32,000 nucleotides of DNA from Halomicronema hongdechloris C2206 (GTDB lineage Bacteria; Cyanobacteriota; Cyanobacteriia; Phormidesmidales; Phormidesmidaceae): the NCBI RefSeq assembly GCF_002075285.3, contig NZ_CP021983.2:2670001-2702000 (forward strand), given 5' to 3'. Shown here in pieces: positions 1 through 18,368 of this stretch. The first letter of the stretch is position 1. Each line of letters starts with the position of its first letter. The notes below the pieces were generated by a model. It made no database searches and was not told where the DNA came from. It worked only from the letters and a program-made list of their open reading frames with translations. The position numbers and the translations under genes are program-made.

Positions 1-1
1 T

Positions 2-400
2 AAAGGAAATTATATGAGCTATTTTGGCTCTTGGGATAGTCATGTTCTTGGATGGATGAGCGGAACAAAGAATAATAATACTGATTTCATATGCTTAAAG
101 TATGAAGATCTCAAAGATGAAACAGAAAAAGAGTTAACTAAAGTAGCTGACTTTTTAGGACTCAAGATTAACCAAGAACTATGTCAGAGAACTATTACTG
201 CTAGTTCCTTTAATAAGATGAGACAATTAGAGTCTATGGATTGGGAGAAATCTAAGGCATTAAGCAATGGTAATCCTCATAAGCGATTTGTAAGAAGTGG
301 GCAAGTAGATGAATGGAAATCGTATTTTAATCAAGAATCAGAGAGAAAATTACTGTCAAAATTTAGACCTGCAATGGAAGCACTTGGCTATACAGATTAG
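2..400 (+). CDS. sulfotransferase, C-terminal part (5' end lies left of the window)
   Basis: The frame is open from base 2 with no stop before the listed ATG at 14, so the gene is cut by the window edge. The C-terminal KRFVRSGQVDEWKSYF resembles the RKGxxGDWKxxF PAPS 3'-phosphate-binding motif of Sulfotransfer_1-type enzymes. AT-rich like its neighbours. Confidence 0.65.
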   Translation, partial: KGNYMSYFGSWDSHVLGWMSGTKNNNTDFICLKYEDLKDETEKELTKVADFLGLKINQELCQRTITASSFNKMRQLESMDWEKSKALSNGNPHKRFVRSGQVDEWKSYFNQESERKLLSKFRPAMEALGYTD

Positions 401-684
401 TCTCTAATAAACTTTTGAAAAGTTCATTAGATAAATAAAAAATAAGCTAAACCATGAGACTAAAAAAATAGATGAGATCTAGCTATAGGGACAGAAGAAC
501 AGTTGGTTTGTTGTAAAAATGTATTACCTTTAAATACCTATTCAGATGCAAAAGTCAAATCTAATTAGTCACCTCAATGGATGAAATGTGCACAATAAAT
601 AAATGATATCTGAGGCAAAAAATTTGGAATTATATTTTTTACTACTTTATAATTCCATATAAAAAACAAGAGAAAATTAAAATC

Positions 685-1512
685 ATGATCAATATAACGT
701 CTTTTTTTAGAAGCAGAAAAGAGTTTAATCTATTATTCTGCATTAACTCTGGAAGATCTGGTTCAAACTACCTTTCAAGTCTCTTAGGAACAACAAAAGA
801 AGTATTTAGTCAGCATGAGGCTGAGCCTCCTATGATTGGTGGATATCTTGAAATGGTAAATAATTATCCCTTTTCTGAATCTTATCAATCTAGAAGAGTA
901 AAAGTCGATGCTATAAAGCAAGCTATTAAAAGCATGCCAAAAAGTAAGAAGATTTACTGTGAAACAAATCACATGTTTATTAAAACATTCTTTGATGTCG
1001 TAATGGATGAATTTTCTGAGAAAGTGGAAATTATTATTCTAAGAAGAAACTTGGTGAGAGTTCTGAAGAGTTTCATAGAACTTGGTTATTTCTCGGAGCG
1101 CAATAAAGTTTGGTCTGAATGGATGTCTAGCCCCAACTCTATAACGGCTGTACTTCCCTGTATTGGTTTAGATAGTGAACTAGATCAATATGATCTATGC
1201 ATTGCATATCTTTTAGATATAGAAGCAAGAGCAGAAAAGTTTCAGAAGGATTATCCTTCAGCAAGGACATATGAGATCAAACTTGAGGATTTAAACGATT
1301 TTTCAAATATAAATAGAATGTTTAAGGCCATGAAAATAACACCTACACAAGAAACTTATAAAATATATAATAAAAAAATTAATAATAGAGAAATTAGAAA
1401 GAAAGAGATAGGAATTAGCTCTAGTTTAGACTATTGCGAGAAGAGATTGAAAGAATACATTGAAAAGGCTAATTACTTGGGGATAGAAATACCGCAAAAG
1501 GCGGCAACATAA
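685..1512 (+). CDS. sulfotransferase-family protein (predicted)
   Basis: 275-aa ORF. The N-terminal LFCINSGRSGSNYLSSLL is a PAPS 5'-phosphosulfate-binding-loop-like motif, nearly identical to the loop in the ORF at 2554. Same strand and composition as the flanking glycan genes. Confidence 0.55.
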   Translation: MINITSFFRSRKEFNLLFCINSGRSGSNYLSSLLGTTKEVFSQHEAEPPMIGGYLEMVNNYPFSESYQSRRVKVDAIKQAIKSMPKSKKIYCETNHMFIKTFFDVVMDEFSEKVEIIILRRNLVRVLKSFIELGYFSERNKVWSEWMSSPNSITAVLPCIGLDSELDQYDLCIAYLLDIEARAEKFQKDYPSARTYEIKLEDLNDFSNINRMFKAMKITPTQETYKIYNKKINNREIRKKEIGISSSLDYCEKRLKEYIEKANYLGIEIPQKAAT

Positions 1513-1580
1513 ATATCTCAGTCAAGCAAGGCTCTTAAACATTTTGCTTATTATCAGGCATTTAAATTGAAGGTAAAACC

Positions 1581-2465
1581 ATGGACCATAATCTCAATCC
1601 TAAAATTAGTGTAGTAATGATAGATGGTTCTTTTCGAGAAAACTTCTCTGCAATAAAGTACTTTGGAGATCAATCTCTTCCTTCTGAGAGTTATGAATTA
1701 ATTTGGGTAGAGTATTACAACAACGTAGATAAAAATTTGAGGAGAGAGATTGAAAAATTTCCAAATTTTAGAATTCTCACTTTAGGCAGAGAAGGAGAAT
1801 ACCATTCTTCCTATTGTTTTAATGCTGGGATTTCAGAAAGTATCGGTGATGTAATCGTAATTCCAGATGCAGACTTAGTTGTAGAAAACAATTTTCTAGA
1901 GGAAATTCTTTCCGAACATAGAAAAAATAACGAGCTGGCAATGTATATCTATAGGCTAAACGAGCCAAAAGAATTACATCAAGAGCCCATTACTCTAGAG
2001 CATTTAAAGCAAGTTTGCATTCTAACAAATCCAACTAACTATGGGGGTTGCCTTTCCGTTAGAAAAGAATGGCTCCTGAAAATCAACGGATACGAGCAAC
2101 ATCCTACATTTGGGACAGGATTTCACGCTAATGGATTAGATATCTATACAAGATTAAAAAACCTTGGACTACAAATCAAGTGGCATCCTACTCTAAGGCT
2201 ATACCATGCTTGGCATCCATTCACTGAAATCAGTGACCATGCATACAAGTTACAAAAGGAAATCATCAAGTATCGTGAGAGAAATCTCCTTACTAATACC
2301 TTTTGTGGAATTGATGTAAAGAGAAATCAGTCAATACCTGATGAGCTGATAGAGAGGCTAGAAAAAATCAGGGTTGGCAAGTCATATAATAGCAATAAAA
2401 AATTAGTAACTTCTTTTAAGTTGAGGGATATTGCATCTCGTTTTACAAGAGATCTTACTCCATAA
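1581..2465 (+). CDS. glycosyltransferase, GT2-like (GT-A fold)
   Basis: 294-aa ORF. The N-terminal ISVVMIDGSFRENF...YELIWVEYYN and the acidic motif VIVIPDADLVV (DxD-like) are typical of family-2-type glycosyltransferases. Confidence 0.65.
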   Translation: MDHNLNPKISVVMIDGSFRENFSAIKYFGDQSLPSESYELIWVEYYNNVDKNLRREIEKFPNFRILTLGREGEYHSSYCFNAGISESIGDVIVIPDADLVVENNFLEEILSEHRKNNELAMYIYRLNEPKELHQEPITLEHLKQVCILTNPTNYGGCLSVRKEWLLKINGYEQHPTFGTGFHANGLDIYTRLKNLGLQIKWHPTLRLYHAWHPFTEISDHAYKLQKEIIKYRERNLLTNTFCGIDVKRNQSIPDELIERLEKIRVGKSYNSNKKLVTSFKLRDIASRFTRDLTP

Positions 2466-2553
2466 AATTCAATTACATAAAATACAAACAATTTTAGCTC
2501 TCCAACGAATGCCTTTCAGGAGTATGTAAATATATCTATTTCCAATCGAGCTA

Positions 2554-3372
2554 GTGTTGCAGTTACTTTTTCTGATCACAATGTCTATCTTCGGGGTACT
2601 TAATAATAATAATAATTACAGTACCAGCAAAACCAATTTTGTAGTCTTATCAATGCCTAGATCTGGAAGCAACTATTTGTGTGGCCTCTTAAATTCACAT
2701 CCTGACATTTTGTGTCACCACGAAGTTTTTCATAGAGATGAGATCTACTACTCTTTGGATCATCGAGATGGCGATTTAAATCTTGGGACAATTGAAGAGA
2801 GAGATCAATATTCTAAAAAGTTCATTAGGAAGATCTGGGAAAATAATTTCGGTTGTTCCAGTGTCGGTTTTAAGATTTTTCCAAACCAACACAAGAAAGC
2901 TATAAATTTCGTTATAAATAACCACAAAATTAAGAAAGTTATCCTTAAAAGAAATAATTATTTTAGGTCTTATACATCGTATATATTAGCTAAGAAAACT
3001 GGGATTTACTCTAATCTTAAAAAAAGTAAATCGCCAAATCATAAAGATAAACAAACGAAGATCAGAGTTGATTTAGATGATCTCGATAGATATATCATTT
3101 CGAGGAACAATTTCTTTCGATCAGTGAGAAACAGGCTTGAATCGACAAATCAATCATTTGTAGAAGTTTCATATGAAGATCTTTTCGGAGGTAATCGGAT
3201 TAGTGTTCACCAGAATATTCTAAATTACATTTGCGTTAAAAATTCAGATCTCCTAAAGGAAACACATCGCAAGCAAAATTCTTCCAGATATCTATCAGAA
3301 ATCATTGATAACTTTTCTGACTTGTCGGAAAAATATCAAGATTCGGATTTAGCAGAATATTTATTAAACTAA
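2554..3372 (+). CDS. sulfotransferase-family protein (Stf0-like, predicted)
   Basis: FVVLSMPRSGSNYLCGLLNSHPDILCHHEVF is a P-loop-like PAPS-binding motif followed by a His-containing segment. The listed start is GTG at 2554; an ATG at 2581 (MSIFGV...) is an equally plausible start. Confidence 0.6.
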   Translation: MLQLLFLITMSIFGVLNNNNNYSTSKTNFVVLSMPRSGSNYLCGLLNSHPDILCHHEVFHRDEIYYSLDHRDGDLNLGTIEERDQYSKKFIRKIWENNFGCSSVGFKIFPNQHKKAINFVINNHKIKKVILKRNNYFRSYTSYILAKKTGIYSNLKKSKSPNHKDKQTKIRVDLDDLDRYIISRNNFFRSVRNRLESTNQSFVEVSYEDLFGGNRISVHQNILNYICVKNSDLLKETHRKQNSSRYLSEIIDNFSDLSEKYQDSDLAEYLLN

Positions 3373-3484
3373 TAGCTCTAGCTTGTCTAATCAAAATATA
3401 AGGCACAAGCTCAGATTAATTACAGTCAAAATATTTAGATGGATTTAATAGCTTTATAAACGTTATTTTGTCACTCTAATCTCT

Positions 3485-4291
3485 ATGAAAAATGTCATCA
3501 TTTTAGGTTCAGGTCGCAGTGGTACCAGCATGGTAACTGGTACCCTTGTTAAGGCTGGTTACTTCATGGGTGATGATCTTTGGAAAGCACGTGAAGCGAA
3601 CCCTAAAGGATTCTTTGAAGATCGAGAGATCAACAGCATTAATGAAGAACTTCTGGCACCTTTAATTCCGCCTAGAATTCGTATCCCAGCTTCCCATCGC
3701 TTGAAGTTGCCAATCAAGCATTTGCGGCAGCATCAGCCTATTCGGCAACAGCGGTGGCTTGCTTGTATTCCAGTCAATGCTTCTATCCCAATATCCGTTG
3801 ACCTAGCTGGGAAAATTCAGAAAATCACAGCTAGAGAACCTTACTGCCTAAAAGATCCAAGATTCTCTTATACATTGCCTGCTTGGAAACCTTACCTAAA
3901 AGATACAGTATTCGTTTGCGTTTTTCGTGATCCAGCTAGCACTTCAAACAGCATTCTAAAAGAGTGCTCTGGTGTTTGGCATCTTAGCAACTCTTCCACA
4001 GGCATCCGCATATCTCGACGGCGGGCACTGCAGATATGGACATTAATGTATCAACACATTCTCGAGAAGCATTATCCCACAGGAGGTAAGTGGTTGTTTA
4101 TGCACTACAATCAGGCCTTAACCTCTGAAGGACTAAGCCGCTTGGAATCCTTCGTACAAGCTCCTGTGGATTACAGTTTTCCAAATCCAAGTATCAGACG
4201 CACTTTTTCCAGGGAACAAGTTCCCAAAAAAGCAAATCAAATATATCAGGAACTTTGCAAGCTAGCTGAATACGAAGATCTAGACTTCTAG
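3485..4291 (+). CDS. sulfotransferase-family protein (predicted)
   Basis: MKNVIILGSGRSGTSMVTGTL at the extreme N-terminus is a 5'-PSB loop. The 268-aa size is typical of bacterial Sulfotransfer_3-like proteins. Confidence 0.6.
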   Translation: MKNVIILGSGRSGTSMVTGTLVKAGYFMGDDLWKAREANPKGFFEDREINSINEELLAPLIPPRIRIPASHRLKLPIKHLRQHQPIRQQRWLACIPVNASIPISVDLAGKIQKITAREPYCLKDPRFSYTLPAWKPYLKDTVFVCVFRDPASTSNSILKECSGVWHLSNSSTGIRISRRRALQIWTLMYQHILEKHYPTGGKWLFMHYNQALTSEGLSRLESFVQAPVDYSFPNPSIRRTFSREQVPKKANQIYQELCKLAEYEDLDF

Positions 4292-4333
4292 ATCTATCGA
4301 TCCAGAATTGCAGCTTAAAATGGCAGTGTAATC

Positions 4334-5257
4334 ATGTTTATTTCAGTCGTCATATGCACGCTCAATCGAGCTGACTATCTCAGGAAAGCAATCAAAAGCT
4401 TAACTAGTCAGACATTTAACGCTGCTCAGTTTGAAATTATTGTCGTTGATAATAACTCTACTGATAATACTCGATCTGTCGCCAAAGACGAGTTCGGTGG
4501 TATTAATAATATTCGATATCTATTTGAACCAGTAATGGGACTCTCGCAAGCCCGTAACACTGGTTGGCAAAATTCTAGAGGTGACTTTATTGCTTTTCTC
4601 GATGATGATGCCATTGCTGCACCACAATGGCTTGAAATAATCGCACAGGTATTTGCGTCTGTTACTCCTATGCCGGGGTGTGTAGGTGGTAAGGTCAAAC
4701 CACTCTGGGAATCGCCAAGGCCCAGCTGGTTATCAGATTCCCTATTATCCTGTCTATCACTTATTGACTATGCCGATTATCCCACTTTTCTAGAAGATGG
4801 CTTTGTCGTTGGCGCTAATATGGCGTTTCCCAAGAAAGTACTCCAAGAACTCGATGGTTTTAGCACCATGTTGGGGAGAAAAGGCAAAAGTCTTCTCTCG
4901 AATGAAGAGATCCTCCTTAGAAATCAACTTAAGAGTGCAGGCTACAAAATTTTCTACCATCCTGAAGCAAGTGTCATCCACCAAATTCCTGCATCTCGAC
5001 TAGAGCAATCATGGTTCCTGAAGCGTTACTATTTTCAAGGTGTATCAGACGCTTATATGATGCTCTATAAAAATAACTTGAGTTCACTGAGACGCCTGAA
5101 TTTGGTTCGCAGAAAAACTAAGTCACTACTTAACTTATCGGATAAATTGGTTCCTCTTTTTCTTCGCTCTGAAGATGCCAATACTTTTTACAAAAAATGT
5201 CAAGCCCGTCGAGATATCGGATATATTGCCGCATTGGCAGGACTTTCTAAGACTTAG
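4334..5257 (+). CDS. glycosyltransferase family 2
   Basis: The canonical GT2 N-terminus ISVVICTLNRADYLRKAIKSLTSQTF..FEIIVVDNNSTDNT is followed by FLDDDA (DxD). Confidence 0.85.
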   Translation: MFISVVICTLNRADYLRKAIKSLTSQTFNAAQFEIIVVDNNSTDNTRSVAKDEFGGINNIRYLFEPVMGLSQARNTGWQNSRGDFIAFLDDDAIAAPQWLEIIAQVFASVTPMPGCVGGKVKPLWESPRPSWLSDSLLSCLSLIDYADYPTFLEDGFVVGANMAFPKKVLQELDGFSTMLGRKGKSLLSNEEILLRNQLKSAGYKIFYHPEASVIHQIPASRLEQSWFLKRYYFQGVSDAYMMLYKNNLSSLRRLNLVRRKTKSLLNLSDKLVPLFLRSEDANTFYKKCQARRDIGYIAALAGLSKT

Positions 5258-5312
5258 CTCTATGTTTGCTTTATAAAACAAATCTATCTGGCGACTAATT
5301 ATTGTGAAATCC

Positions 5313-6407
5313 ATGACTCCATCCAAACTAAAAAAACCTTTACGAGTCGCATTTTTATCGGATTGGTTCGGCAGTCCGTATAAGAAGTTATTAGCGGAAC
5401 ATCTTGAGCAACTAAATGTAGAGGTGACAGAATATCAACAATATAGGAGATTTATAACAACTGTACTTAAAGATAAAAAACCACACGTTGTACATATCCA
5501 CAGTACTATTTTTAACTTGTTTGGTAACAAGGACTCTCAACTACTGAAATGGATCCGAATATTGCAGTTTGTGAGCCAAGTCATCCTACTCCGACTGTTA
5601 GGTGTCAAGACTATTTGGACGATCCACGAATGGGCTGACAAGCATAACCGAGGGAATCGTGATTTATCTACTTGGCAATATGCCCTACTTGGGCAAGTAT
5701 TTCACTCTATTATTGTTCATTGCAAGTCTACCGGCAATGAAGTTGTTAAGTCTTTAGGAATTCAAAATCAGTCTAAGTTGATTGTTATTCCTCATGGAAA
5801 TTTTATCGATTTTTATGAAAACACTGTCGATCAGATAATTGCTAGAGAAAAACTTGGAGTTCCTCTCAATCACACTGTGTTTTTATTTTTTGGTGCCATT
5901 TCTTATCACAAAGGAATCATAGAGACTCTAGATGCTTTCAATGTTGTTTCAGAGCAAAAGTCTGAAGTATCACTACTTGTGGCCGGCAAAATATCTCATT
6001 TAGAGGTGAACCTTGAAGATAATATTCACAAAAGAATAATTAACAACAAAAACATCCATCTCTTTCCGGGAAAAGTGTCTGATGAGGATGTACAGCTTTA
6101 TATGAATGCTTGTGACTGCGTTGTTACACCATATCGTTCATTTACAACTTCTGGTGTAGCACTACTAGCAATGTCTTTTGGAAAAGCTATAATTGCACCT
6201 AAAAGAGGATTTTTTAGCGATTCTCTAAGTAAAGAAGGGGCGTTTTTATATGACCCATTTTCCAATAATTCGCTTATAGAAAGCTTTGAACTAGCTGTTG
6301 AAAATAAGAATAATTTGGCAAAAATGGGACAACATAATCTCTTAATAGCTAAAAAACTGAATTGGAAAACGATAGCCGATCAATCTTTGGAAATTTATCT
6401 TGGCTAA
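5313..6407 (+). CDS. glycosyltransferase, GT-B fold (group 1 / GT4-like)
   Basis: C-terminal half reads FLFFGAISYHKG...LLVAGK...VVTPYRSFTTSGVALLAMSFGKAIIAP, the Glycos_transf_1 pattern. The ORF track starts at GTG 5304; the ATG at 5313 is chosen here. Confidence 0.7.
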   Translation: MTPSKLKKPLRVAFLSDWFGSPYKKLLAEHLEQLNVEVTEYQQYRRFITTVLKDKKPHVVHIHSTIFNLFGNKDSQLLKWIRILQFVSQVILLRLLGVKTIWTIHEWADKHNRGNRDLSTWQYALLGQVFHSIIVHCKSTGNEVVKSLGIQNQSKLIVIPHGNFIDFYENTVDQIIAREKLGVPLNHTVFLFFGAISYHKGIIETLDAFNVVSEQKSEVSLLVAGKISHLEVNLEDNIHKRIINNKNIHLFPGKVSDEDVQLYMNACDCVVTPYRSFTTSGVALLAMSFGKAIIAPKRGFFSDSLSKEGAFLYDPFSNNSLIESFELAVENKNNLAKMGQHNLLIAKKLNWKTIADQSLEIYLG

Positions 6408-6486
6408 ATTTATTGCTCATAAAGTTTCAGCTTTTGAGACTTCTGTTGACTAGGAGATTTAAGTGGACTTGAACTGGAAAATGGAT

Positions 6487-7617
6487 TTACTTAAATTGTG
6501 CTTGGGCTTTAAAGATAGCTTTTTCCCAATGATGCCGCCGAATCTGACGTCCATACCAAATGGGCCGACCAATCAATTTCCCTAACGGCGACTGTCGCCG
6601 CCAGCGCTCATAGCCTTCCACCACTGGCCCCGCTAAAATCTCCCGCCAACACTTCGCCACCCCATCGGCATCATAGTCCCGCACCCGTTGCCAGCCATTC
6701 TCTACCATGGCCTGGTAATAGCCCGGCTCTTCTTTCAGTCGCCGTAGTGCAGCAATAGCTTCCTCCGAAGAATGCACCTCAATGTAGTCCAACTTCGAGC
6801 GGCGCAACTGTTGATAAGCTGGCTCTGGCCCCAACAACGCCGGGCACCCTGCTAACCAGGCATTGACCAGCTTACTCGCCGGTTTCACCGACAGCAAAAG
6901 CGGCTTACTCTCACGAACCGCTAGTACTGCATCCGTCTGAGAATAATCGTGCCAGTCTTTCCATGCCTGTTTTAGATCCTGGGCATTTTCATCACTGGTT
7001 TCTAACTGAATCCCCAACCCATGCAGAGCAGTGACAAACTCCTCTTGGCGAAATGGGGCTGCTAAATGTTGACTACGGCCCTTATAGACCAACGTGTCTA
7101 GCTGGCACCCCCGGTTACGATCCCTAGGAATGATATTCGGCTGCGGCCAATGGGGGACAAAATGATCGACTCTCGCATCAACCACATTGAGTTGATTTTG
7201 CACGATCCGGTGGTTACAGAGCTCTGGGCGGCCGCGGTCATGCTGGCAAGCCACTACAAAACTATTAAAAGATAGGCGTTTAGGCGATAGTTGTTCATAA
7301 ACCGCCACGCAAATTTGCCCCGGCACATAGCTGCGTGTTAGCTCGACATTGAGCCCCCGCTTCATCAACTGCACATAGGTTTGAATTGGCCAATTGAGTG
7401 TTTCAGTGCCGATACCAGAGCGATACTCTGGTGACCATAGTCTTAAGGCCTCGTAGAGGTAATCCACCAGGTCATCTGCTGGGAGTGATGCGGCCTCATC
7501 AATGGCTGCTTTGAGACGCAGCCAACTCTCCTGGGACACACGACAGACAAAATAAACTGGATATGGTAAGGGCTGCAGAGATAAAACCATAGTACTCTTC
7601 GATGAAGATTCAATCAA
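6487..7617 (-). CDS. hypothetical protein, possible GT-B-type glycosyltransferase (CgeB-like C-terminal domain)
   Basis: 376-aa ORF in GC-rich DNA. The C-terminus KPASKLVNAWLAGCPALLG...IEVHSSEEAIAALRRLKEEPGYYQAMVENGWQRVRDY resembles the Glyco_trans_1_2 type C-terminal domain. The function call is weak. Confidence 0.4.
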   Translation of the reverse strand: MIESSSKSTMVLSLQPLPYPVYFVCRVSQESWLRLKAAIDEAASLPADDLVDYLYEALRLWSPEYRSGIGTETLNWPIQTYVQLMKRGLNVELTRSYVPGQICVAVYEQLSPKRLSFNSFVVACQHDRGRPELCNHRIVQNQLNVVDARVDHFVPHWPQPNIIPRDRNRGCQLDTLVYKGRSQHLAAPFRQEEFVTALHGLGIQLETSDENAQDLKQAWKDWHDYSQTDAVLAVRESKPLLLSVKPASKLVNAWLAGCPALLGPEPAYQQLRRSKLDYIEVHSSEEAIAALRRLKEEPGYYQAMVENGWQRVRDYDADGVAKCWREILAGPVVEGYERWRRQSPLGKLIGRPIWYGRQIRRHHWEKAIFKAQAQFK

Positions 7618-7995
7618 TCTGAAATAAAGTTGCTAATGACTATCAAACTTTCCTGATGAGCACTGTCATTCTAGAAGAGATAACTGAAATTTTAACTGCC
7701 ATGGTAATCATGGCGATTAGTTACTGGCTTACAAACGCCAGGTACCAACCACAAACGCCTTAAATCATTACCTACATTGACCCTCTGTTCTCAGCAATTG
7801 GTTCCTGCTTTACCATAGCCACTGTTAATGATCTTCATTCAGTTAGCAAAGGATCAGGAAACTATTTTTGAATAATCATCGTCTCAGATAAAAGTGCAGA
7901 TCAGGTAGACATTGTGCATCCCTATTCCCTAAATTAAAGCCACACAATTGCCCCTTGCATCGCTAGGTAGTGCTCAACCCAATTTGCTCCTTACC

Positions 7996-8997
7996 ATGCA
8001 CTCAATAGGCGTTGTCACCATTGGCCGCAACGAAGGAGAACGACTGATTCGTGGCCTTAAATCCCTAACAAAATACCTACCCTCTGACACCCCCATTGTC
8101 TATGTCGATTCTGGCTCTACTGACGGAAGTATCGCCGCTGCCCAAGCCTTAGGTATCCACGCCATCGAGTTAGACATGTCAGTTCCTTTCACCATGGCCC
8201 GGGGGCGCAATGCAGGCTTTCAATACCTGATAGATCAGTTTCCTGAGCTCACCTATGTGCAATTCATGGATGGTGACTGTGAGCTATTGCCTAACTGGAT
8301 TGAACCAGCAAAAGCTGCCCTAGACCAAGCCCCTGATCTGGCCATCGTTTGTGGTCGTCGGCGGGAGCGCTTCCCCGAGGCTTCCCCCTACAACCGGCTG
8401 GCCGACATGGAATGGAACACCCCCGTCGGTGAAGCCAAAGCCTGTGGGGGCGATATGTTGGCTCGTGTTGCCGCCATTAAAGACGTTGGTGGCTACACCC
8501 CCACCCTGATCTGTGGCGAAGAACCCGAAATGTGCATTCGCCTACGCCAGCAGGGGTGGCGCATTCGCCGCATCGATGCCGATATGACCCTGCACGATGC
8601 CGCCATGACCCACTTTAGCCAGTGGTGGAAGCGTTCTATCCGGGCGGGTTGGGCCATTGCCGAAGGGAAAGCCATGCATGGAGCCCCCCCTGAAAACTAC
8701 ATGGTGAAAGAATCCCGCAGTGGCTGGTTGTGGGGGTTCATTATTCCAGGTTTAGCCATCGGCCTCAGTTGGCCCACCCGGGGCATCAGCGTAACGCTAC
8801 TGCTGGGCTATGGCGTACTTATGGGGCGTATCTACCAATATCGCAGGCAACAGCATGATCTCCCTGAGCATGCCTGGTTATATGCCCGTTTCTGCACGTT
8901 ATCTAAGCTGCCTCAATGTATTGGTCAGGCACGATATTGGCTAACTCGCCTGCGTCGCCAACAGGCAACTCTTATCGAGTATAAGACCACCTTCTGA
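7996..8997 (+). CDS. glycosyltransferase family 2 with C-terminal membrane segment
   Basis: MHSIGVVTIGRNEGERLIRGLKSL...VYVDSGSTDGS...QFMDGDCEL shows the GT2 signature and DxD. A hydrophobic stretch (WLWGFIIPGLAIGLSW..) lies near the C-terminus. The ORF track offers a TTG start at 7948; the ATG at 7996 fits the family N-terminus better. Confidence 0.8.
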   Translation: MHSIGVVTIGRNEGERLIRGLKSLTKYLPSDTPIVYVDSGSTDGSIAAAQALGIHAIELDMSVPFTMARGRNAGFQYLIDQFPELTYVQFMDGDCELLPNWIEPAKAALDQAPDLAIVCGRRRERFPEASPYNRLADMEWNTPVGEAKACGGDMLARVAAIKDVGGYTPTLICGEEPEMCIRLRQQGWRIRRIDADMTLHDAAMTHFSQWWKRSIRAGWAIAEGKAMHGAPPENYMVKESRSGWLWGFIIPGLAIGLSWPTRGISVTLLLGYGVLMGRIYQYRRQQHDLPEHAWLYARFCTLSKLPQCIGQARYWLTRLRRQQATLIEYKTTF

Positions 8998-8998
8998 C
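8990..8998. repeat. target-site duplication, left copy (CCTTCTGAC)
   Basis: The identical 9-mer occurs at 10299-10307, directly outside the two inverted repeats of the IS. It contains the TGA stop (8995-8997) of the GT2 gene. Confidence 0.65.
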
Positions 8999-10298
8999 CT
9001 GACTGCCTGACACATCTTTTACTCTAGTCGGCAGGATAGAGAGCGGATGCGAGAGAACCAGATTTGGTCGTAATAGTCGTGCTCCGCTTTTTTGGAGGCA
9101 AAACAAGGCTCTGGGTCACGGACTAACAGCGCTATCGGCTCTAGAAGCTGTCGTCCTTTGTGAACGACTCCCTTAAGCCAGCGCAATCCAATCTTGAGGT
9201 AGCTGAGTCCGCGCCGCCAATGAGGGTCTACCTGCTGCCTAAGGCCTTCAATCTGAACCGCCATGCCAGTGGTTGTTCCATAAAGCAGTGCAATAGCGGC
9301 CACTAGATAAAGTCGCTCAAGGGCTACCGCTGAGCGGATTCGGGAGTCTTCAATCTCGAAAGCTCCTGATTTGCTATCCAAAAACAGCTCCTCTACTCTG
9401 AAACGCAACGCGTAGCGCCAGAGCGTCTGCAAGGTAGGCGGTTCATCGGTGATGACGGCCCAAGGCTCTTTGACGCCTTTAAGCGTCGCCAGCACGATGT
9501 TGCACTGGTGGGAGCCATCCTGCCACAGCCTGACATTTCGATAGAAAATCGCCTCGCCTTTTGGCGGCCACAGATATCTCACTTCAGTCGGATAACGCCT
9601 TGGCCCGTGCAGCAGGACATCGCAGGGCACTCGCAAGCAGTAGTGCCAACTGCTCGCTTGCAACCAACTCATCAAGTCGTGGTTGGCAAAGCCTCGGTCG
9701 GCCAGCAGCATTAGGTTCGGGTACTGCCTCAAAAGCCACCGGGCACGGCGCAGCAAAGGGCGGTATTCTTCAAAAGCCACCGTTGCACTGCCATGCTCAA
9801 GCACTCGCCACAGTAGCGGGACTGCTCGTCCGCAGCACACCACTGACAGGTGAATCATGCAGTATTGGTTCCACAGCACCGTTGTATCGAGTGCCAGATA
9901 CAGCCGCTTGCCCTCCCACTGCCTCAGCGTCAGCAGCACCAGCGGTAGGTAGAGCTGATTTATCTCAACGAGCCGGTTGCCGAAAAATCGATGCCACCGC
10001 CGCTCGAAGCTTTGCGCTTTGTTGGCACGGCTTATCACGTAGGACTCCCAAGCAGGTGGGCTCAGCTCACCACTACAAATCAGGGCGGTGACCATCCAAG
10101 ATAGGGCTTTGATATGGCGCAAGTCCCGGTAGTGGCTGTATTGACGCAGATAGTGCAGCAGTTGATCATAGAGCTGGGTAGAGCTTGGCATGTCGCTTTG
10201 GCCGTCAGTGTGGTAACTACAGCCTCGCACACGAGCTCTGCCTATTTCCTCTTTGTCCTGATATGACTACCTTTCAGCTACTTCTGTCAGGCACTCAG
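8999..10298 (-). mobile_element. IS4-family insertion sequence (~1.3 kb, single transposase)
   Basis: Terminal inverted repeats are CTGACTGCCTGACA (8999-9012) and the reverse complement of TGTCAGGCACTCAG (10285-10298), matching at 13 of 14 positions. The element is flanked by 9-bp direct repeats and encodes a DDE transposase with a YREK signature. Confidence 0.8.
9019..10191 (-). CDS. IS4-family DDE transposase
   Basis: The motifs LALDTT, LLADRGF and YALRFRVEELFLDSK fit D, D and Y-x2-R-x3-E-x6-K exactly. The likely start is the ATG at 10191 (MPSSTQLYDQLL...) rather than the upstream GTG at 10230. Confidence 0.85.
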   Translation of the reverse strand: MPSSTQLYDQLLHYLRQYSHYRDLRHIKALSWMVTALICSGELSPPAWESYVISRANKAQSFERRWHRFFGNRLVEINQLYLPLVLLTLRQWEGKRLYLALDTTVLWNQYCMIHLSVVCCGRAVPLLWRVLEHGSATVAFEEYRPLLRRARWLLRQYPNLMLLADRGFANHDLMSWLQASSWHYCLRVPCDVLLHGPRRYPTEVRYLWPPKGEAIFYRNVRLWQDGSHQCNIVLATLKGVKEPWAVITDEPPTLQTLWRYALRFRVEELFLDSKSGAFEIEDSRIRSAVALERLYLVAAIALLYGTTTGMAVQIEGLRQQVDPHWRRGLSYLKIGLRWLKGVVHKGRQLLEPIALLVRDPEPCFASKKAEHDYYDQIWFSRIRSLSCRLE

Positions 10299-10307
10299 CC
10301 TTCTGAC
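10299..10307. repeat. target-site duplication, right copy (CCTTCTGAC)
   Basis: Identical to 8990-8998 and abuts the right inverted repeat. Confidence 0.65.
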
Positions 10308-10341
10308 ACCATTTCCTGCGTCGTTTGCTTGGAACATTTTC

Positions 10342-10728
10342 ATGTCAGCGCCGGTTGTTAAGTCTATAAAGCACTCAATGCCTCGATACCCGGTCTTGGA
10401 TGGCTGGCGAGGTATTAGCATCCTCTGTGTGTTAGCCTCTCACATGCTGCCGCTTGGTCCTGCCGCTTGGGATTTGAACCTAGCAGCAGGGTATCTGGGC
10501 ATGTCCTTATTTTTTACATTGTCGGGCTTTTTAATTACAACAAGCCTGATTTTTAGATTAGACCTATATGAATTCGCTATCCGGCGAGTGATTAGGGTTG
10601 TTCCCCTTGCTTGGCTTTATGTGGCTGTTGTTTTATCGTTGCAATTGCCCAGCTTCTCTACTGCCGTAGCGCATCTTTTGTTCTACGCTAATTTACCTCC
10701 ATCTTCTACTATGAAAAACCTTTTATAG
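10342..10728 (+). pseudogene. acyltransferase family 3 (OafA/YrhL-like O-acyltransferase), 3'-truncated
   Basis: The N-terminus RYPVLDGWRGISILCVLASHM...FFTLSGFLIT...RRVIRVVPLAW matches the Acyl_transf_3 start. It stops after 128 aa, whereas family members are typically ~350 aa or more with about 10 TM helices. Confidence 0.65.
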
Positions 10729-10822
10729 TCTGGGGAAAACGGTGGATTATATAGAGCCAGGGAAAGTTTATTCCCTCAAAAAATTAGAGACATAAAAACA
10801 TGATTGATTTTGGAAACAAAAA

Positions 10823-12115
10823 ATGATGGGAAATAAAAAGCTGAGAATTCTATTAATCATCGAGCAGTGTAATCCTGAGTGGACATCAGTTCCGCTGCAA
10901 GGCTATTATTTCTATATCAGTATTAGAAATTTATTTAATACAACTCTGGTCACTCACGAGAGAAATAAACCAGCACTAGAAAAAGTACATTCAGATAGAG
11001 ATATTGTTTATATTTATGAGAGTAATTTTACTAAGTGGTACTATAAACATGCAGAATCTTTAAGCAAAATAAAAGGCAAAATAATTTGGCCTCTCTACAA
11101 TACACTAACCTATCCAATTTATGCTGAATTCAACCATCTAGTCTACAAAAAGTTTAAAACTTCTGTTCTTAAAAGAGACTATGACATTGTCCATGTCGTC
11201 ACACCAATGATGCCGCGCTATCCGGCCAAGATTATCAAAGCTTGCAAAAATATTCCCTTTATAATTGGGCCAGTAAACGGTGGTGTGCCCTATCCAAAAG
11301 GATTTCAAGAGATCGCTCGAAAAGAGTTTGCTGGCTTTAACTTCTTGCGGTTAATTGGCCGATGGCTTATTCCTGGCTACCGTGAGACCTACGAAGAGGC
11401 TGATTATATCCTCGCTGGCTCAACTTATACACTAAATTTAATCAAAAGCCTATTCGACGTTAGAGATGAACACATAGAACTATTCTATGAAAATGGAATC
11501 AATGACGCCTTCTTTAGTAAAGATCCCAAAGTCGACACTGAAGAGAGTATACAGATAAACCTTCTCTTTGTCGGTCGTCTCGTACCTTATAAAGGAGCTG
11601 ATATATTAATAGACTCAATTGGTCAACTAAGACCGCAGATCCAAGAAAATATATCTTTAATTATTGTTGGTAATGGCTCTGAGAAAGAGTCTTTACAGCA
11701 GCAAGTGCAAAATCTCGATCTAAAAGAAAAAATCCACTTTCCAGGCTGGGTAAATCAGCAAGAAATACTCGAGTATTACCATAAATCCGATATCTTTTGT
11801 TTCCCTTCAGTTAGAGAGTTTGGAGGTGCCGTAGTCATAGAGGCTATGGCTAATGGACTTCCATGCATCGTTGTTGACAATGGTGGTATTGGAGAATATG
11901 TCACCGAAGAAACCGGATTTAAAATTAATCCGATTTCCAGAGAGTTTGTCGTGCAGGAGCTAAGAAAACGAATTGAGCAATTGGTAGAAGATAGGGCCTT
12001 ACATGCTGCAATGTCATACGAGGCAGTTGAACGGGCAAAAGAGTTTACTTGGGACTCCAAAGCCGAGAAAATATCAGACATTTACTTGAAATTATTAAGT
12101 AATTCGAGTGAATAA
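10823..12115 (+). CDS. glycosyltransferase family 4 (group 1)
   Basis: LLFVGRLVPYKGADILIDS...FPSVREFGGAVVIEAMANGLPCIVVDNGGIGEYV is the canonical GT4 E-x7-E region. Confidence 0.85.
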   Translation: MMGNKKLRILLIIEQCNPEWTSVPLQGYYFYISIRNLFNTTLVTHERNKPALEKVHSDRDIVYIYESNFTKWYYKHAESLSKIKGKIIWPLYNTLTYPIYAEFNHLVYKKFKTSVLKRDYDIVHVVTPMMPRYPAKIIKACKNIPFIIGPVNGGVPYPKGFQEIARKEFAGFNFLRLIGRWLIPGYRETYEEADYILAGSTYTLNLIKSLFDVRDEHIELFYENGINDAFFSKDPKVDTEESIQINLLFVGRLVPYKGADILIDSIGQLRPQIQENISLIIVGNGSEKESLQQQVQNLDLKEKIHFPGWVNQQEILEYYHKSDIFCFPSVREFGGAVVIEAMANGLPCIVVDNGGIGEYVTEETGFKINPISREFVVQELRKRIEQLVEDRALHAAMSYEAVERAKEFTWDSKAEKISDIYLKLLSNSSE

Positions 12116-12153
12116 TCATAACCGATCCTCAAAGTTATTTGAGATTTAAAGAG

Positions 12154-13350
12154 ATGAATTTGACCTTAGGATACTTTGTTCCCGAATTTCCCAGCCAGAC
12201 CCATGCATTTTTCTGGCGAGAAGTGAATGCATTGCGCGAACAAGGCATTAGTGTCCAATTATTCTCTAGCCGTCGCCCGCCGGATACAGCGTGTTATCAT
12301 CCATTTGCGGATACAGCACGTCAGCAAACTTACTATGTCTTCCCACCCAATATCATAAAGGTTCTATCTTTTGCGTTCTCACATCCCCATAAGTTATGGT
12401 GGGGAATTTCGTATATCGTAAATCTACCTGAAATATCTTATTTGCAACGAGTAAAGCTAATGAGCTTACTCGCTTGTGCCATAGAATTAGTAGCCCATTG
12501 TCGAAACCTAGACATCAATCATGTCCACTTTCATTCTTGTGCAAATTCTGCCCATATTGGTGCGATCGCAAATATCATCTCTGAAATTTCGTATAGTTTA
12601 ACTTTGCATGGTGATCTGACAATCTACGGAACTCATCATCCCCAGAAAATGATGCGAGCCGAACTGGTCACCGCAGTAACTACACCACTAAAAAAGCAAA
12701 TACTTGATGCGACCTCAATGACCGAAGATCGTGTGCCAATCATCCATATGGGCGTTGATGTTGATTACTTCCAACCTAAAACCCGTCAAAAAGATACATC
12801 AACAGAACTGCATGTGGTTACGGTCGCTCGGTTGAATCGAGTTAAGGGACATGTCTATATGTTAGAAGCCCTATCAAAACTGCAAGAAGAAGGCCACAAC
12901 ATCAAGTATTCTATCGCAGGCGAAGGGACATATCGTCCAGAGATAGAAAAGAGAATTAAGGAATTGAAACTAGTAGATTCAGTAGTAATGCTAGGTTCCA
13001 TTGGAGAAGATGATGTTCTTCGGCTTCTACAATCGGCAGATATTTTTGCACTCACTAGTACTGGACGTGGTGAAGCAGCACCAGTCTCGGTCATGGAAGC
13101 TATGGCCTGTGGTCTACCCACCATATGCTCTATTATCGGAGGGACACCAGACATGATTGAGCATAGAAAGGATGGATTTCTACTCAATCAAAAAGACATT
13201 CCTGCCATAACCAATACCCTACGAGAATTAATACTTTCTCCCGAGTTGCGATATCAAATTGGCAAAGCTGCCAGACAGAAGGCAGTTCATCGCTATGACT
13301 ATCGGGTCACAGCAAAACAGCTAAGTGAGGCTATATTGAAATTTAAATAG
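12154..13350 (+). CDS. glycosyltransferase family 4 (WcaL-like)
   Basis: MNLTLGYFVPEFPSQTHAFFWREV is a WcaL-type N-terminus, and VTVARLNRVKGH...GEAAPVSVMEAMACGLPTICSIIGGTPDMI is the GT4 region. The ORF track start at TTG 12139 is probably too early. Confidence 0.85.
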   Translation: MNLTLGYFVPEFPSQTHAFFWREVNALREQGISVQLFSSRRPPDTACYHPFADTARQQTYYVFPPNIIKVLSFAFSHPHKLWWGISYIVNLPEISYLQRVKLMSLLACAIELVAHCRNLDINHVHFHSCANSAHIGAIANIISEISYSLTLHGDLTIYGTHHPQKMMRAELVTAVTTPLKKQILDATSMTEDRVPIIHMGVDVDYFQPKTRQKDTSTELHVVTVARLNRVKGHVYMLEALSKLQEEGHNIKYSIAGEGTYRPEIEKRIKELKLVDSVVMLGSIGEDDVLRLLQSADIFALTSTGRGEAAPVSVMEAMACGLPTICSIIGGTPDMIEHRKDGFLLNQKDIPAITNTLRELILSPELRYQIGKAARQKAVHRYDYRVTAKQLSEAILKFK

Positions 13351-13407
13351 TCACTATAGATATTAAAAATCTTTTCCAAAACATGTCTTTTGAATTTATG
13401 AGGATCC

Positions 13408-14145
13408 ATGAATTATCCATATCGTCACATACCAATAGTTTCTCCTGCGTACCGAAACCTGAGGAGATTTGTGAATAGCAGACGCTACGCCGGAAACAAT
13501 GTCTGGTGTCCTGTTTGCTCACGGTCCTTCAAGTCTTGGTTAAATAATCAGAGTCATGGCTCATGTCCTTACTGCCGCTCTGAAACTCGTCACCGAATAA
13601 CTTGCTTGTATCTGCAAAATCGATACAGTAATACTCAACTACCGATAAAGCTTCTTTATTTTGCTCCACACTGGGGACTAGAGCGATGGCTCCGTAAACA
13701 AAAACGTACGTTTTCCTGCACCACAACTGACCTGTCAGCACCCAATGTAGATGTTCATGCTGACATAACTAACTTGCCGTTTAAGAGTCAGTCATTTGAC
13801 CTGATTGTGTGTTGTCATGTTTTAGAACATATTCCTAATGATGAAAAAGCCATTAGTGAGTTGTTTCGAGTGTTACACAACGATGGAACCGCATTGATAC
13901 AGGTTCCATGTAATTATTCTGCTGAATATACAGACGAAGATCTATCCATCACAGATGCCCATGAGCGGGAAAAACGCTTTGGCCAGTTTGATCATGTCAG
14001 ACTCTATGGCCAAGATATTGTGAAACGACTGAAACTGCCAGGGTTCAAAGTGGAAATCTTTCGTCCTACACGGAACTACACAAGGCAAGAAAATGAACGT
14101 TTAGGGCTATGGGATGACGCTATTTTTGTCTGTCGCAAAGGTTAG
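13408..14145 (+). CDS. class I SAM-dependent methyltransferase with N-terminal Cys4 zinc-ribbon-like motif
   Basis: CPVCSRSF...CPYCRSETRHR is followed by FDLIVCCHVLEHIPNDEKAISELFRVLHNDGTALIQVP, which is Methyltransf_11-like. Confidence 0.8.
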   Translation: MNYPYRHIPIVSPAYRNLRRFVNSRRYAGNNVWCPVCSRSFKSWLNNQSHGSCPYCRSETRHRITCLYLQNRYSNTQLPIKLLYFAPHWGLERWLRKQKRTFSCTTTDLSAPNVDVHADITNLPFKSQSFDLIVCCHVLEHIPNDEKAISELFRVLHNDGTALIQVPCNYSAEYTDEDLSITDAHEREKRFGQFDHVRLYGQDIVKRLKLPGFKVEIFRPTRNYTRQENERLGLWDDAIFVCRKG

Positions 14146-14303
14146 AATACCTATTAGTCCTCTTTAGGAAATTTGGGTGTCCAAAAAGAATGCTTATACA
14201 ATGTTAGTTACAGCGATGCAGAAAATTCCTGAAAGCCCTGAAGTGCAAGAATTCTCAGAGTGCATCCTAGTTTTCTGACATTACGGTTAATAATGGAGGC
14301 ATA

Positions 14304-15020
14304 ATGGCAACATTAAGTAGTTTTTTCGATCGCATTTATATTTTAAACCTTCCCCATCGCGTTGATCGACGCAAAGCCACCATCAAGGAGTTGGAGTCAA
14401 TAGGAGTATTTTTGAAACCTGAAAAGATTGAAGTCTTTCCGGCTATCAAGCCTGACAAGGCAGAACCTTTCAAGAAATTGGGATCTAAAGGTTGTTTCCT
14501 GAGTGTGTTAGCTATCCTCGGGCATGTAAGAGATGAAGGTGCTAACAACGTCTTGATTTTTCAGGATGACATTAAATTCCCCCCATTTTTCAACAAACAT
14601 GAGAGTTCTTTAATACAGCAGCTTGAGCTCCAGAACTGGGATATTGCTCAGTTCGGTCATCTTACCACCGAAATAGATGATGCAGATATCAAGGATAAAT
14701 TTGCCACCTGGAGAGACTCTGAAAGTAAAGCTATAGGTGCACATTTCTTTGCCGTCAATGGCAAATCCCTCGATCGATTCATTCATTTTCTTGAAGAGCT
14801 TATGAGTCGCCCGAGTGGACATCCTGAGGGGGGAGCCATGCCCATAGACGGAGCATTTACTGTATTTCGTCGTCAGAATCCTGACATAGTTAGATTACTG
14901 GCTATACCTAGCTTTGGGGGGCAAAGAAGTTCACGCAGCGATGTTACTCCTAAGTGGTTCGATAAGCTACCAGTAACATCAAACTTGGCTCAACTATATC
15001 GGCACTGGATTTATCATTAG
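14304..15020 (+). CDS. glycosyltransferase family 25-like
   Basis: The N-terminus FDRIYILNLPHRVDRRKATIKELESIG matches the GT25 (LOS/LPS galactosyltransferase family) start motif. A GGAGG Shine-Dalgarno sequence lies just upstream. Confidence 0.6.
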   Translation: MATLSSFFDRIYILNLPHRVDRRKATIKELESIGVFLKPEKIEVFPAIKPDKAEPFKKLGSKGCFLSVLAILGHVRDEGANNVLIFQDDIKFPPFFNKHESSLIQQLELQNWDIAQFGHLTTEIDDADIKDKFATWRDSESKAIGAHFFAVNGKSLDRFIHFLEELMSRPSGHPEGGAMPIDGAFTVFRRQNPDIVRLLAIPSFGGQRSSRSDVTPKWFDKLPVTSNLAQLYRHWIYH

Positions 15021-15517
15021 TCAATGGTGGAGCTTAAGGATTTCTACCGTATTTCACAGACTATAGTCAGCTCACATCACTATTAGAGGATATTTGGAAA
15101 GTACCCTGCAACTTTGCTCCAGGCTTGCTTCTGGCCAACAGAACCATACACGCTAAAACGCCTACCTTACAGGCCTTTCAGCCGAGTTTTCAAATACCCT
15201 CTTAGGCATCTCAGACTCAGATAAGGAAGCTGTACTGGCAATTTGTCAAGTACTCAGTCAGATCGAGAGCATAATTTGAATATTTTTTTAGTGGACGTAC
15301 CATATTAATTTATCTTGGTTACCATGGGGCAATCATCCAGGGGGTAATCTCAGTCATCGTTGCTCGATAGTTGCCACTGCCTGGCAGTGTCGTAGGGCGA
15401 ACATAGAGATCTAAAATAAACCTGCTACTCTTGGTGCACTCTACCTACAGGCAACGAAGCTAACAATGATGTCACTATTGGTGACTTTTTTAACCTCAGG
15501 AAGCCAGTGCACCAACC

Positions 15518-17846: not shown

Positions 17847-18191
17847 ATGAAGACATCCCTAAGTCTAGGCCTTCTAACGTTGCTGTTGAGCGTTCCCTTG
17901 CAAATTGGGTTTGCTCCCTGGGCCTATGCCCAGATCGAAAGTGATGATGATGGCATCGAAATCGAAGATACCGATGACGATGACGACGACGACATCGATG
18001 ACGATGACGATGACGATGATGATGACGATGACATTGGTAATGACGACGATGACGATGTTGGCGAGTTCGATGACGACGATGTTACGGTTCCCAGCGATCC
18101 AGCCAATGTCCCCGAACCCATGACCATCCTCGGTAGCATGGCTGCCCTGGGCATGGGCTATGCGGCCAAGCGCAAACTGTCAGATAAGTAA
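17847..18191 (+). CDS. secreted poly-aspartate protein with PEP-CTERM sorting signal
   Basis: The signal peptide is MKTSLSLGLLTLLLSVPLQIGFAPWAYA. The core has 33 Asp and 4 Glu in 59 residues, with D7 and D12 runs. The C-terminus VPEP-MTILGSMAALGMGYAA-KRK is the PEP motif, a TM helix and a basic cluster. A strong RBS is present. Confidence 0.75.
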   Translation: MKTSLSLGLLTLLLSVPLQIGFAPWAYAQIESDDDGIEIEDTDDDDDDDIDDDDDDDDDDDDIGNDDDDDVGEFDDDDVTVPSDPANVPEPMTILGSMAALGMGYAAKRKLSDK

Positions 18192-18341: not shown

Positions 18342-18368
18342 CCCCCCTCGCCCGAGGGGGGATTTTTT
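18342..18368 (+). terminator. Rho-independent terminator
   Basis: The stem is CCCCCCTC (18342-18349) paired with GAGGGGGG (18354-18361), with loop GCCC, followed by A + TTTTTT (18363-18368). The opposite strand has no T-tract. Confidence 0.6.

Follow-up and report, generated by a model that had tools for sequence, protein, structure and literature searches.

We analysed a 32-kb stretch of the chromosome of the cyanobacterium Halomicronema hongdechloris C2206 (the window), in which positions 1-15020 were examined as a dense cluster of sulfotransferase and glycosyltransferase genes. H. hongdechloris is a chlorophyll-f cyanobacterium isolated from a stromatolite. We consider it likely that this region is the assembly and decoration part of a locus resembling the synechan (xss) cluster, making a sulfated extracellular or surface polysaccharide. 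The region contains four genes of sulfotransferase type, eight glycosyltransferase genes (starting at 1581, 4334, 5304, 6487 on the minus strand, 7948, 10823, 12139 and 14304), a gene for a zinc-ribbon S-adenosylmethionine (SAM)-dependent methyltransferase, an IS4-family element and the remnant of an acyltransferase gene. An earlier reading of this DNA, made from the letters and their translations (the sequence-only reading), had predicted four sulfotransferases dependent on 3'-phosphoadenosine 5'-phosphosulfate (PAPS), interleaved with seven to eight glycosyltransferases and a methyltransferase. Our count of eight agrees with it, its zinc-ribbon methyltransferase (13408) and GT25 enzyme (14304) were confirmed by Pfam, and the IS4 element and the acyltransferase remnant were absent from it. 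Those parts of its interpretation that were open to testing here were borne out, with ORF685 (below) as the weakest of the four sulfotransferase assignments.

The xss cluster lies on plasmid pSYSM of Synechocystis sp. PCC 6803 (sll5042-sll5060; Maeda et al. 2021, PMC8205485), and we compared it directly with the window proteins by BLASTP. The GT2 enzyme encoded at 7948-8997 (+), predicted to be membrane-bound (PF00535, PF13632), shares 52% identity with XssM (Slr5054) in an alignment of 330 aa that spans residues 1-326 of the 329 in XssM (E=1e-129), and the likeness takes in the C-terminal hydrophobic region. XssM is essential in Synechocystis, where its loss abolishes synechan exopolysaccharide (EPS) and bloom formation (PMC8205485). 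The alignment begins at M17 of the longest open reading frame (ORF), which opens with a TTG at 7948, and the gene probably starts at the ATG at 7996 instead. The GT25 protein (14304-15020, +; PF01755, 30 bits) matches XssC with 37% identity along 229 aa (E=3e-55), and a GT4 protein (12139-13350, +) matches XssI over its full length with 24% identity in 399 aligned aa (E=4e-33). The latter also aligns over its full length with the NCBIfam EPS_EpsE model, at 394 bits against a cut-off of 400. A weak match to XssB (26% identity, E=4e-6) was obtained with the HpsE/AglG-like GT2 protein encoded at 4334-5257 (+; PF00535, 103.7 bits), which scores 137 bits, below threshold, on the NCBIfam HpsE model. 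Judged from these full-length relatives of XssM (52%), XssC (37%) and XssI (24%), the likeness to xss seems stronger than the sequence-only reading held.

The other four glycosyltransferases were assigned by Pfam. They are a GT2 enzyme resembling Glyco_transf_7C (1581-2465, +; PF00535, 27.6 bits), a GT4 enzyme (5304-6407, +; PF00534, 68 bits, and PF13692), a GT-B-like protein borderline for Glyco_trans_1_2 (6487-7617, -; PF13524, 25.3 bits for a cut-off of 25) and an EpsH-like GT4 enzyme (10823-12115, +; PF00534, 134.8 bits), which gives a full-length but sub-threshold match of 263 bits to NCBIfam EPS_EpsH. The gene at 6487-7617 is the sole biosynthetic gene on the minus strand and has a GC content of 0.52. 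The methyltransferase (13408-14145, +; PF08241, 53 bits) matches further class I methyltransferase models, and the N-terminal CxxC...CxxC cysteine pairs of its zinc ribbon can be seen in the translation.

Four sulfotransferase-type proteins

The four sulfotransferase motifs named in the sequence-only reading lie where it had placed them, in frame 2-400 and in ORFs 685-1512, 2554-3372 and 3485-4291, all on the plus strand. We took as a 5'-phosphosulfate-binding (PSB) loop an N-terminal loop after strand 1 with the pattern x-[RK]-[ST]-G-[ST] and without the Walker-A lysine of kinases; such a loop is present in ORF685 (GRSGS), ORF 2554 (PRSGS) and ORF 3485 (GRSGT). As a 3'-phosphate-binding (3'-PB) motif we took a strand-end Arg followed 7-8 residues on by a Ser in the next helix, or the GxxGxxK-type C-terminal motif in SULT-like proteins, and found one or the other in all four. 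The curated hidden Markov model (HMM) set used for sulfotransferases (PF00685, PF13469, PF03567, PF17784, PF09037) divided the four evenly: the HMM search proposed with the sequence-only reading bore it out for fragment 2-400 and ORF 2554, which passed the thresholds, and not for ORF 3485 and ORF685, which missed them.

Frame 2-400 encodes the C-terminal half of a SULT-like Sulfotransfer_1 protein, scoring 83.4 bits on PF00685 (cut-off 22) over model positions 136-254 of 255; the N-terminal ~135 model positions, including the PSB loop, fall left of base 1. The fragment matches 46 sulfotransferase sequences in the Protein Data Bank (PDB). Its motif RSGQVDEWKSYF aligns on RKGIIGDWKNHF of estrogen sulfotransferase, and its 3'-PB motif RSGQVDEWK lies over RKGIIGDWK of the same enzyme. 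A homolog search with this truncated fragment gave no match.

ORF 2554 (2554-3372, +) encodes a carbohydrate sulfotransferase of the NodH type. It scores 31 bits on Sulfotransfer_3 (PF13469, cut-off 27) and aligns over its full length (residues 25-249) with PDB entry 9vki, annotated 'LPS sulfotransferase NodH' (LPS, lipopolysaccharide), with E=6e-17. The PRSGS loop within SMPRSGSNYL (nt 2659) pairs with ARSGS of 9vki, and KRNNYFRSYTS pairs with ERENKLASYSS, which carries the R...S motif for the 3'-phosphate. Matches to the protein at ≥80% query coverage and <60% identity were also obtained on 81 plasmids, identities being 24-28% among the matches listed; Sinorhizobium accounts for 57 of the 85 matching records, and several among the matches listed are annotated 'sulfotransferase'. 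The same tblastn search of plasmids, pSYSM included, gave no Synechocystis match for any of the four sulfotransferases.

ORF 3485 (3485-4291, +), 100% identical to the deposited XM38_025210, is of the Sulfotransfer_3 type. Its own score on PF13469 is 24.8 bits, just under the cut-off of 27, and the domain is present in most of the homologs listed, which are 48-68% identical to it. The loop LGSGRSGTSM begins at nt 3512; across the family G10-R11-S12-G13-T14 hardly vary, and R148 and S156 do not vary at all. An AlphaFold2 (AF2) model with a predicted local distance difference test (pLDDT) score of 89.6 has as its top fold matches the CurM sulfotransferase domain, TPST1/2, Stf9 and Stf1, all distant (TM-score about 0.5; E=3e-5 for 4gbm).

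With three of the four assigned by HMM or PDB homology, the identity of fragment 2-400, ORF 2554 and ORF 3485 as sulfotransferases is hardly in doubt for any one of them. Pairwise BLASTP among the four proteins returned loop-sized matches only, and hhalign of the ORF685 and ORF 3485 family profiles aligned 21 residues, the loop and nothing more, at 3.8% probability. By sequence comparison the four thus appear mutually unrelated, without detectable paralogy, which agrees with the earlier view that they are dissimilar outside the loops and not recent duplicates.

ORF685 and its family

ORF685 (685-1512, +) encodes a divergent protein of predicted sulfotransferase fold, assigned from motifs, predicted fold and neighbourhood. 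Its 275-aa product is 100% identical to the deposited XM38_025180, which has 226 aa and begins at Met50, 49 codons downstream, leaving out the INSGRSGS loop (INSGRSGSNYL at nt 751). This loop is present in 27/27 homologs and the alignment favours the 275-aa reading, so the deposited N-terminus is probably mis-annotated (window 685-831). Among the 28 sequences of the family no variation is seen at G23, R24 and G26, nor at L119-R120-R121 and S129 (LRR-x7-S), and very little at S27; G-R-x-G and LRR-x7-S would be the expected PSB and 3'-PB elements.

Sequence searches gave little for ORF685 itself: no Pfam or NCBIfam match at E≤0.01, 15.4 bits on PF13469 (E=0.023), and chance matches only when phmmer and the 28-sequence family profile were run against the PDB. 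Weak Sulfotransfer_3 matches were detected in 9/28 family members (best E=2e-4), and no rival family recurs. The AF2 model (pLDDT 89.9, predicted TM-score 0.87) has as its top fold matches the CurM sulfotransferase domain (4gbm, E=2e-5), TPST2 and heparan sulfate 3-O-sulfotransferase (3-OST), at TMq 0.52-0.55. These E-values and TM-scores are at the level of those of ORF 3485, and for both models nucleotide kinases rank below the sulfotransferases (E 1e-3 to 1e-2). At the level of the fold ORF685 passes the structural check proposed with the sequence-only reading. Neighbouring ORFs in other genomes were also informative, since 10/10 of those tested are Pfam sulfotransferases, and fusions to GT2, NodZ-like and FkbM domains occur within the family. 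Taken together, the fold, the conserved motifs, the weak Sulfotransfer_3 signal, the fusions and the neighbourhood indicate that ORF685 is very probably a sulfotransferase.

A scan of a genome collection gave 31 related loci. Homologs of the GT2 gene at 1581 (42-58% identity) lie directly downstream of ORF685 homologs in four of them (L016, L020, L021 and L022), and the two genes form a conserved pair. Synteny was found in L016, a metagenome-assembled genome (MAG) of a Desulfobacteraceae, which holds in the same order a four-gene module of an ORF685 homolog, a GT2 gene (58% to ORF 1581), an ORF 3485 homolog (51%) and a second GT2 gene; a homolog of ORF 2554 is absent from this module. The locus continues with Sulfotransfer_3, GT2, NKWYS, Sulfotransfer_2, GT2 and GT4 genes, and in all at least four sulfotransferases stand among six glycosyltransferases. 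Homologs of the gene at 6487 (32-34% identity) occur 7-10 kb from ORF685 homologs in the Okeania/Microcoleaceae loci L001, L002 and L017, and the Okeania locus L002 has at least three sulfotransferases together with sugar-nucleotide enzymes. Because the module or the pair recurs in L016, L020, L021 and L022, and in view of the sulfotransferase-rich L002, transfer of low-GC sulfotransferase/glycosyltransferase cassettes between phyla appears to take place, and in the present genome such cassettes seem to have come to flank an XssM-like gene of intermediate GC.

Clustered at 50% identity, the ORF685 family amounts to at least 1318 representatives, and neither Pfam nor NCBIfam has a model for it. 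In Cyanobacteria, Nitrospira, Desulfobacterota, Bacteroidota, Planctomycetota and other groups its members stand beside glycosyltransferases or are fused with them, and other sulfotransferase genes always lie nearby. A set of fusions of 540-580 aa (P0280, P0313, P0318, P0332, P0338, P0351, P0353, P0360 and P0388) carries, N-terminal to the ORF685-type domain, a conserved one of ~270 aa, for which a Pfam scan of one related fusion (P0261) gave no match. The idea that these N-terminal halves are glycosyltransferases of the ORF1581 type, as in a Rosetta-stone fusion, was rejected as BLASTP detected no similarity; they form a domain of their own. We tentatively suggest, with more doubt than confidence, that ORF685 represents a large undescribed family of carbohydrate sulfotransferases and that, provided that these loci are active, sulfated polysaccharides occur widely among bacteria. 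If so, ORF685, a GT2 enzyme, a sulfotransferase and a second GT2 enzyme would make up a mobile sulfated-sugar cassette. The family is the part of the locus that most deserves follow-up, and with the non-cyanobacterial loci it offers a route to ask whether sulfated glycans are commoner in bacteria than thought.

Layout, composition and neighbouring genes

The H. hongdechloris genome has a GC content of 54.6%, and sulfotransferases go unmentioned in the paper that describes it (PMC6416890). Other sulfotransferase/glycosyltransferase neighbourhoods exist in this genome, for example XM38_005510-005540. Three compositional blocks make up the region: a first arm at 2-6407 (GC 0.32-0.43), a core at 6487-10298 of intermediate composition (GC 0.52-0.55) and a second arm at 10823-15020 (GC 0.38-0.43), with a third-position GC (GC3) of 0.27-0.39 across both arms. 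The housekeeping genes at 23-32 kb (a SulP-type permease gene, guaA, cbiD, moaA, rpsD and a HisRS-like gene) have 55-64% GC and a GC3 of 0.65-0.76. The island is therefore a mosaic of two low-GC arms around an XssM-like core of intermediate GC; the two AT-rich arms described earlier were recovered, and the core departs from a single uniform AT-rich island. Judging from composition, both arms are apparently of foreign origin. Within each arm the genes lie on one strand with gaps of 24-159 bp, a spacing that suggests two transcription units. Scans for consensus promoters (39 vs 38.3 in shuffled sequence) and for terminators (11 vs 15.5) were uninformative on operon boundaries. No tRNA was found in the window when tRNA-associated integration was looked for, and no Rfam family matched when regulatory RNAs were looked for.

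The IS4-family insertion sequence occupies 8999-10298 on the minus strand (8990-10307 with its duplication) and encodes a DDE_Tnp_1 transposase at 9019-10230 (-), which scores 125 bits on the NCBIfam IS4 model, under the cut-off of 152. It is bounded by 14-nt terminal inverted repeats (8999-9012 and 10285-10298), outside which the 9-bp target site CCTTCTGAC can be read in the sequence as a perfect duplication (8990-8998 and 10299-10307). The duplicated target includes the stop codon (TGA) of the XssM-like gene, which is undisrupted. The insertion is clean and probably recent; it could part the XssM-like gene from the genes downstream. Beyond it, at 10342-10728 (+), lies an O-acyltransferase remnant of 128 aa (Acyl_transf_3, PF01757, 49.6 bits) that spans model positions 4-111 of 326. 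The remnant stops where the second arm begins, the GC content falling at 10729-10822.

To the right of the island, a 735-aa right-handed beta-helix protein is encoded at 15518-17725 (+; GC 0.51, intermediate). It combines choice-of-anchor-Q and H-lectin-like domains (PF13229, 75 bits; PF09458, weak; NF041518, 40.5 bits), has no sequence match in the PDB and could be a glycanase or lectin for the neighbouring glycan, its membership of the pathway being uncertain. The next gene (17847-18191, +) encodes an Asp-rich secreted protein of 114 aa with a cyanobacterial PEP-CTERM sorting signal (TIGR04155 cyano_PEP, 41.4 bits for a cut-off of 21.6); the Asp runs come from a GAT/GAC tandem repeat at 17972-18081, and a strong terminator-like hairpin follows the gene at 18342-18361. 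A link of this protein to the glycan pathway is only suggestive.

Farther right, a 119-aa ORF (18794-19153, +) has a partial Uma2 domain (putative restriction endonuclease; model positions 32-119 of 172) and is probably a gene fragment. The 713-aa protein at 21092-23233 (-), considered as a hidden exporter or co-polymerase, turned out to be a vanadium-dependent bromoperoxidase (E=2e-213 to PDB 5lpc; also 1qhb and 1up8), a halogenating enzyme 6 kb from the glycan island that has no meaningful Pfam match. A SulP-family permease fused to STAS and cyclic-nucleotide-binding domains is encoded at 23334-25583 (-; Sulfate_transp, 96 bits). It scores far under the NCBIfam cut-offs for sulP and BicA, sulfate and bicarbonate being its candidate substrates, and its proximity to the sulfation locus may be coincidence.

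Product of the locus and relation to known systems

By analogy with xss, the eight glycosyltransferases, including the XssM-like GT2, XssC-like GT25 and XssI-like GT4 enzymes, would assemble a lipid-linked oligosaccharide repeat unit on the cytoplasmic side of the membrane. PAPS-dependent sulfation would fall to four soluble enzymes (the SULT-like, NodH-like and Sulfotransfer_3-like enzymes and ORF685), each acting on a different hydroxyl of this unit. The sulfation would take place in the cytoplasm ahead of export, since that is where PAPS occurs and membrane segments are absent from all four sulfotransferase-type proteins. The zinc-ribbon methyltransferase may put an O-methyl group on one of the sugars, and genes outside the window would have to provide the PAPS, the priming transferase, and the flippase, polymerase, co-polymerase and outer-membrane exporter. 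We infer that the four sulfotransferases share a single glycan as their acceptor, that this acceptor is an EPS and that the genes are expressed; the heavy, regio-specific sulfation put forward in the sequence-only reading is likewise an inference.

Several observations weigh against this reading. As the sequence-only reading had remarked, genes for export and PAPS supply are lacking from the window, and so are priming genes: Pfam, NCBIfam and BLASTP detected no Wzx, Wzy, Wzc or other polysaccharide co-polymerase (PCP), outer-membrane polysaccharide exporter (OPX), ABC transporter, priming transferase or PAPS-synthesis gene in the 32-kb window, and this absence concerns the window and not the locus as a whole. 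The xss cluster has Wzx (XssH), Wzy (XssF), PCP (XssK) and the priming enzyme XssP, none of which has a homolog in the window; XssP and XssQ gave no BLASTP match there at E≤1 beyond chance-level fragments. XssA is unrelated to all four sulfotransferases, and fragment 2-400 matches XssE over 35 aa only (E=4e-4). ORF685 misses every curated HMM cut-off, and the structures that it matches are remote (TM about 0.5), nucleotide kinases following closely. The insertion sequence and the acyltransferase remnant mark a rearranged locus that could be partly inactive. Finally, the GT25 enzyme, the NodH/LPS-type sulfotransferase and the O-acyltransferase remnant would fit LPS equally well. As for regulators, no response-regulator or histidine-kinase domain was detected by Pfam in the ORFs scanned, short overlapping and antisense ORFs being outside the scan, and XssR and XssS stood outside the BLASTP comparison set.

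The fit to LPS raises the possibility that the locus decorates the O-antigen or core of LPS rather than making a released EPS, the glycosyltransferases building an O-unit and the sulfotransferases sulfating LPS, as the NodH-type enzyme of 9vki reportedly does. The only close solved relative of ORF2554 (9vki) is annotated as an LPS sulfotransferase, GT25 is an LPS biosynthesis family in its Pfam description, Acyl_transf_3 remnants are typical of O-antigen acetylases, and low GC with a mosaic structure is typical of O-antigen loci. However, xss itself has a GT25 enzyme, no Wzm/Wzt, WaaL or Wzz was found in the window, and the best-supported relationships link the locus to the EPS genes of synechan. 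The kinship with XssM, XssC and XssI is our reason for preferring EPS to LPS, and we regard LPS as an unlikely, though not negligible, acceptor. Signals of the EPS type are the pair of EpsE-like and EpsH-like GT4 enzymes and the short same-strand gaps.

Still less probable, in our view, is a product that is not a polymer, such as a sulfated and methylated glycolipid, a lipo-oligosaccharide, a glycosylated small molecule or a glycosylated protein, for example the adjacent PEP-CTERM protein, whose gene lies 2.8 kb downstream. Such a product would explain why the window holds no polymerase, flippase or exporter; NodH-type enzymes act on lipo-chitooligosaccharides, and the CurM sulfotransferase domain, the top structural match for ORF685 and ORF3485, belongs to a natural-product pathway. 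Yet no PKS, NRPS, lipid-synthesis or NodABC-like genes (PKS, polyketide synthase; NRPS, non-ribosomal peptide synthetase) were found in the window, eight glycosyltransferases are many for a small molecule, and the relatives of XssM, XssC and XssI suggest a polysaccharide made of repeat units. Export genes, moreover, usually lie elsewhere in cyanobacterial sulfotransferase clusters, which are mostly partial (Maeda et al., PMC8205485). Least probable of all is an island in decay, pieced together from horizontally acquired fragments and with no working pathway. The IS4 insertion, the truncated acyltransferase, the three compositional blocks and the lack of export and priming genes in the window could be read in this way. 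Against it, all twelve full-length enzyme ORFs are intact by comparison with homologs and models, the thirteenth (Sulfotransfer_1) is cut by the window edge only, the IS4 element sits exactly at a stop codon and leaves the gene whole, and catalytic-loop residues are conserved. An xss-like locus for a sulfated polysaccharide hence remains our preferred reading.

Sulfated polysaccharides are valued biomaterials for which few bacterial routes exist. Synechan/xss is the only one of these routes that has been dissected genetically, and it is already being transferred into production hosts (PMC13125312). The four sulfotransferase lineages described here, with the XssM-, XssC- and XssI-like glycosyltransferases, would provide a parts set for position-specificity tests and combinatorial engineering in a Synechocystis chassis. 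As a genome feature the locus is unsurprising, since marine cyanobacteria are known for many sulfotransferase genes in partial EPS clusters. Maeda et al., who searched cyanobacterial genomes with PF00685, PF03567 and PF13469, reported 12-30 sulfotransferase genes per marine cyanobacterial genome, mostly in partial EPS clusters, in a table that does not include H. hongdechloris (PMC8205485). The rarity implied by the sequence-only reading was thus overstated, the more so as equally dense loci occur in other phyla. Three to five sulfotransferase genes stand among glycosyltransferases in L016 (8701-19232), in L010 of Nitrospira japonica (11660-15572), in L018 of a Roseivirgaceae (5540-13606) and in L031 of a Weeksellaceae (1183-13201). 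These four loci and L002 share the interleaved sulfotransferase/glycosyltransferase architecture of the present one; they are uncharacterised, come from unrelated phyla and are without ORF2554 and XssM-like genes. The same paper stated that sulfated polysaccharides are exclusive to cyanobacteria (PMC8205485), a view with which the sulfotransferase-dense loci of non-cyanobacterial phyla, as predicted from their genes, would sit awkwardly.

At the level of single enzymes, ORF2554 shares with the NodH-type proteins (9vki and those of rhizobial plasmids) a full-length alignment, the RSGS loop and the downstream R...S motif; it differs in its low identity (24-28% among the matches listed) and in its context, a polysaccharide-type cluster of a cyanobacterium and not a nod operon. 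With the PF13469 and PF00685 families the proteins have in common the fold, the 5'-PSB loop and the 3'-PB Arg/Ser motif, and the curated thresholds are reached by fragment 2-400 and ORF 2554 themselves and, in the case of ORF 3485, by most of the homologs listed; ORF685 differs as a separate, unmodelled family. At the level of the whole locus, both this region and xss are cyanobacterial and have sulfotransferases interleaved with eight glycosyltransferases, and a gene of an exosortase/PEP-CTERM system lies near each, a cyanoexosortase-A-associated gene in xss and the PEP-CTERM protein gene here. The sequence-only reading had said that xss uses fewer sulfotransferases, and indeed it has two (PMC8205485) where this locus has four. 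The present locus has beyond xss the methyltransferase, the IS4 element and the acyltransferase remnant, and it is chromosomal and compositionally mosaic, whereas xss is on pSYSM. Because Maeda et al. already surveyed such clusters, it is a further case of the known cyanobacterial sulfotransferase/EPS clusters and not a new kind of system.

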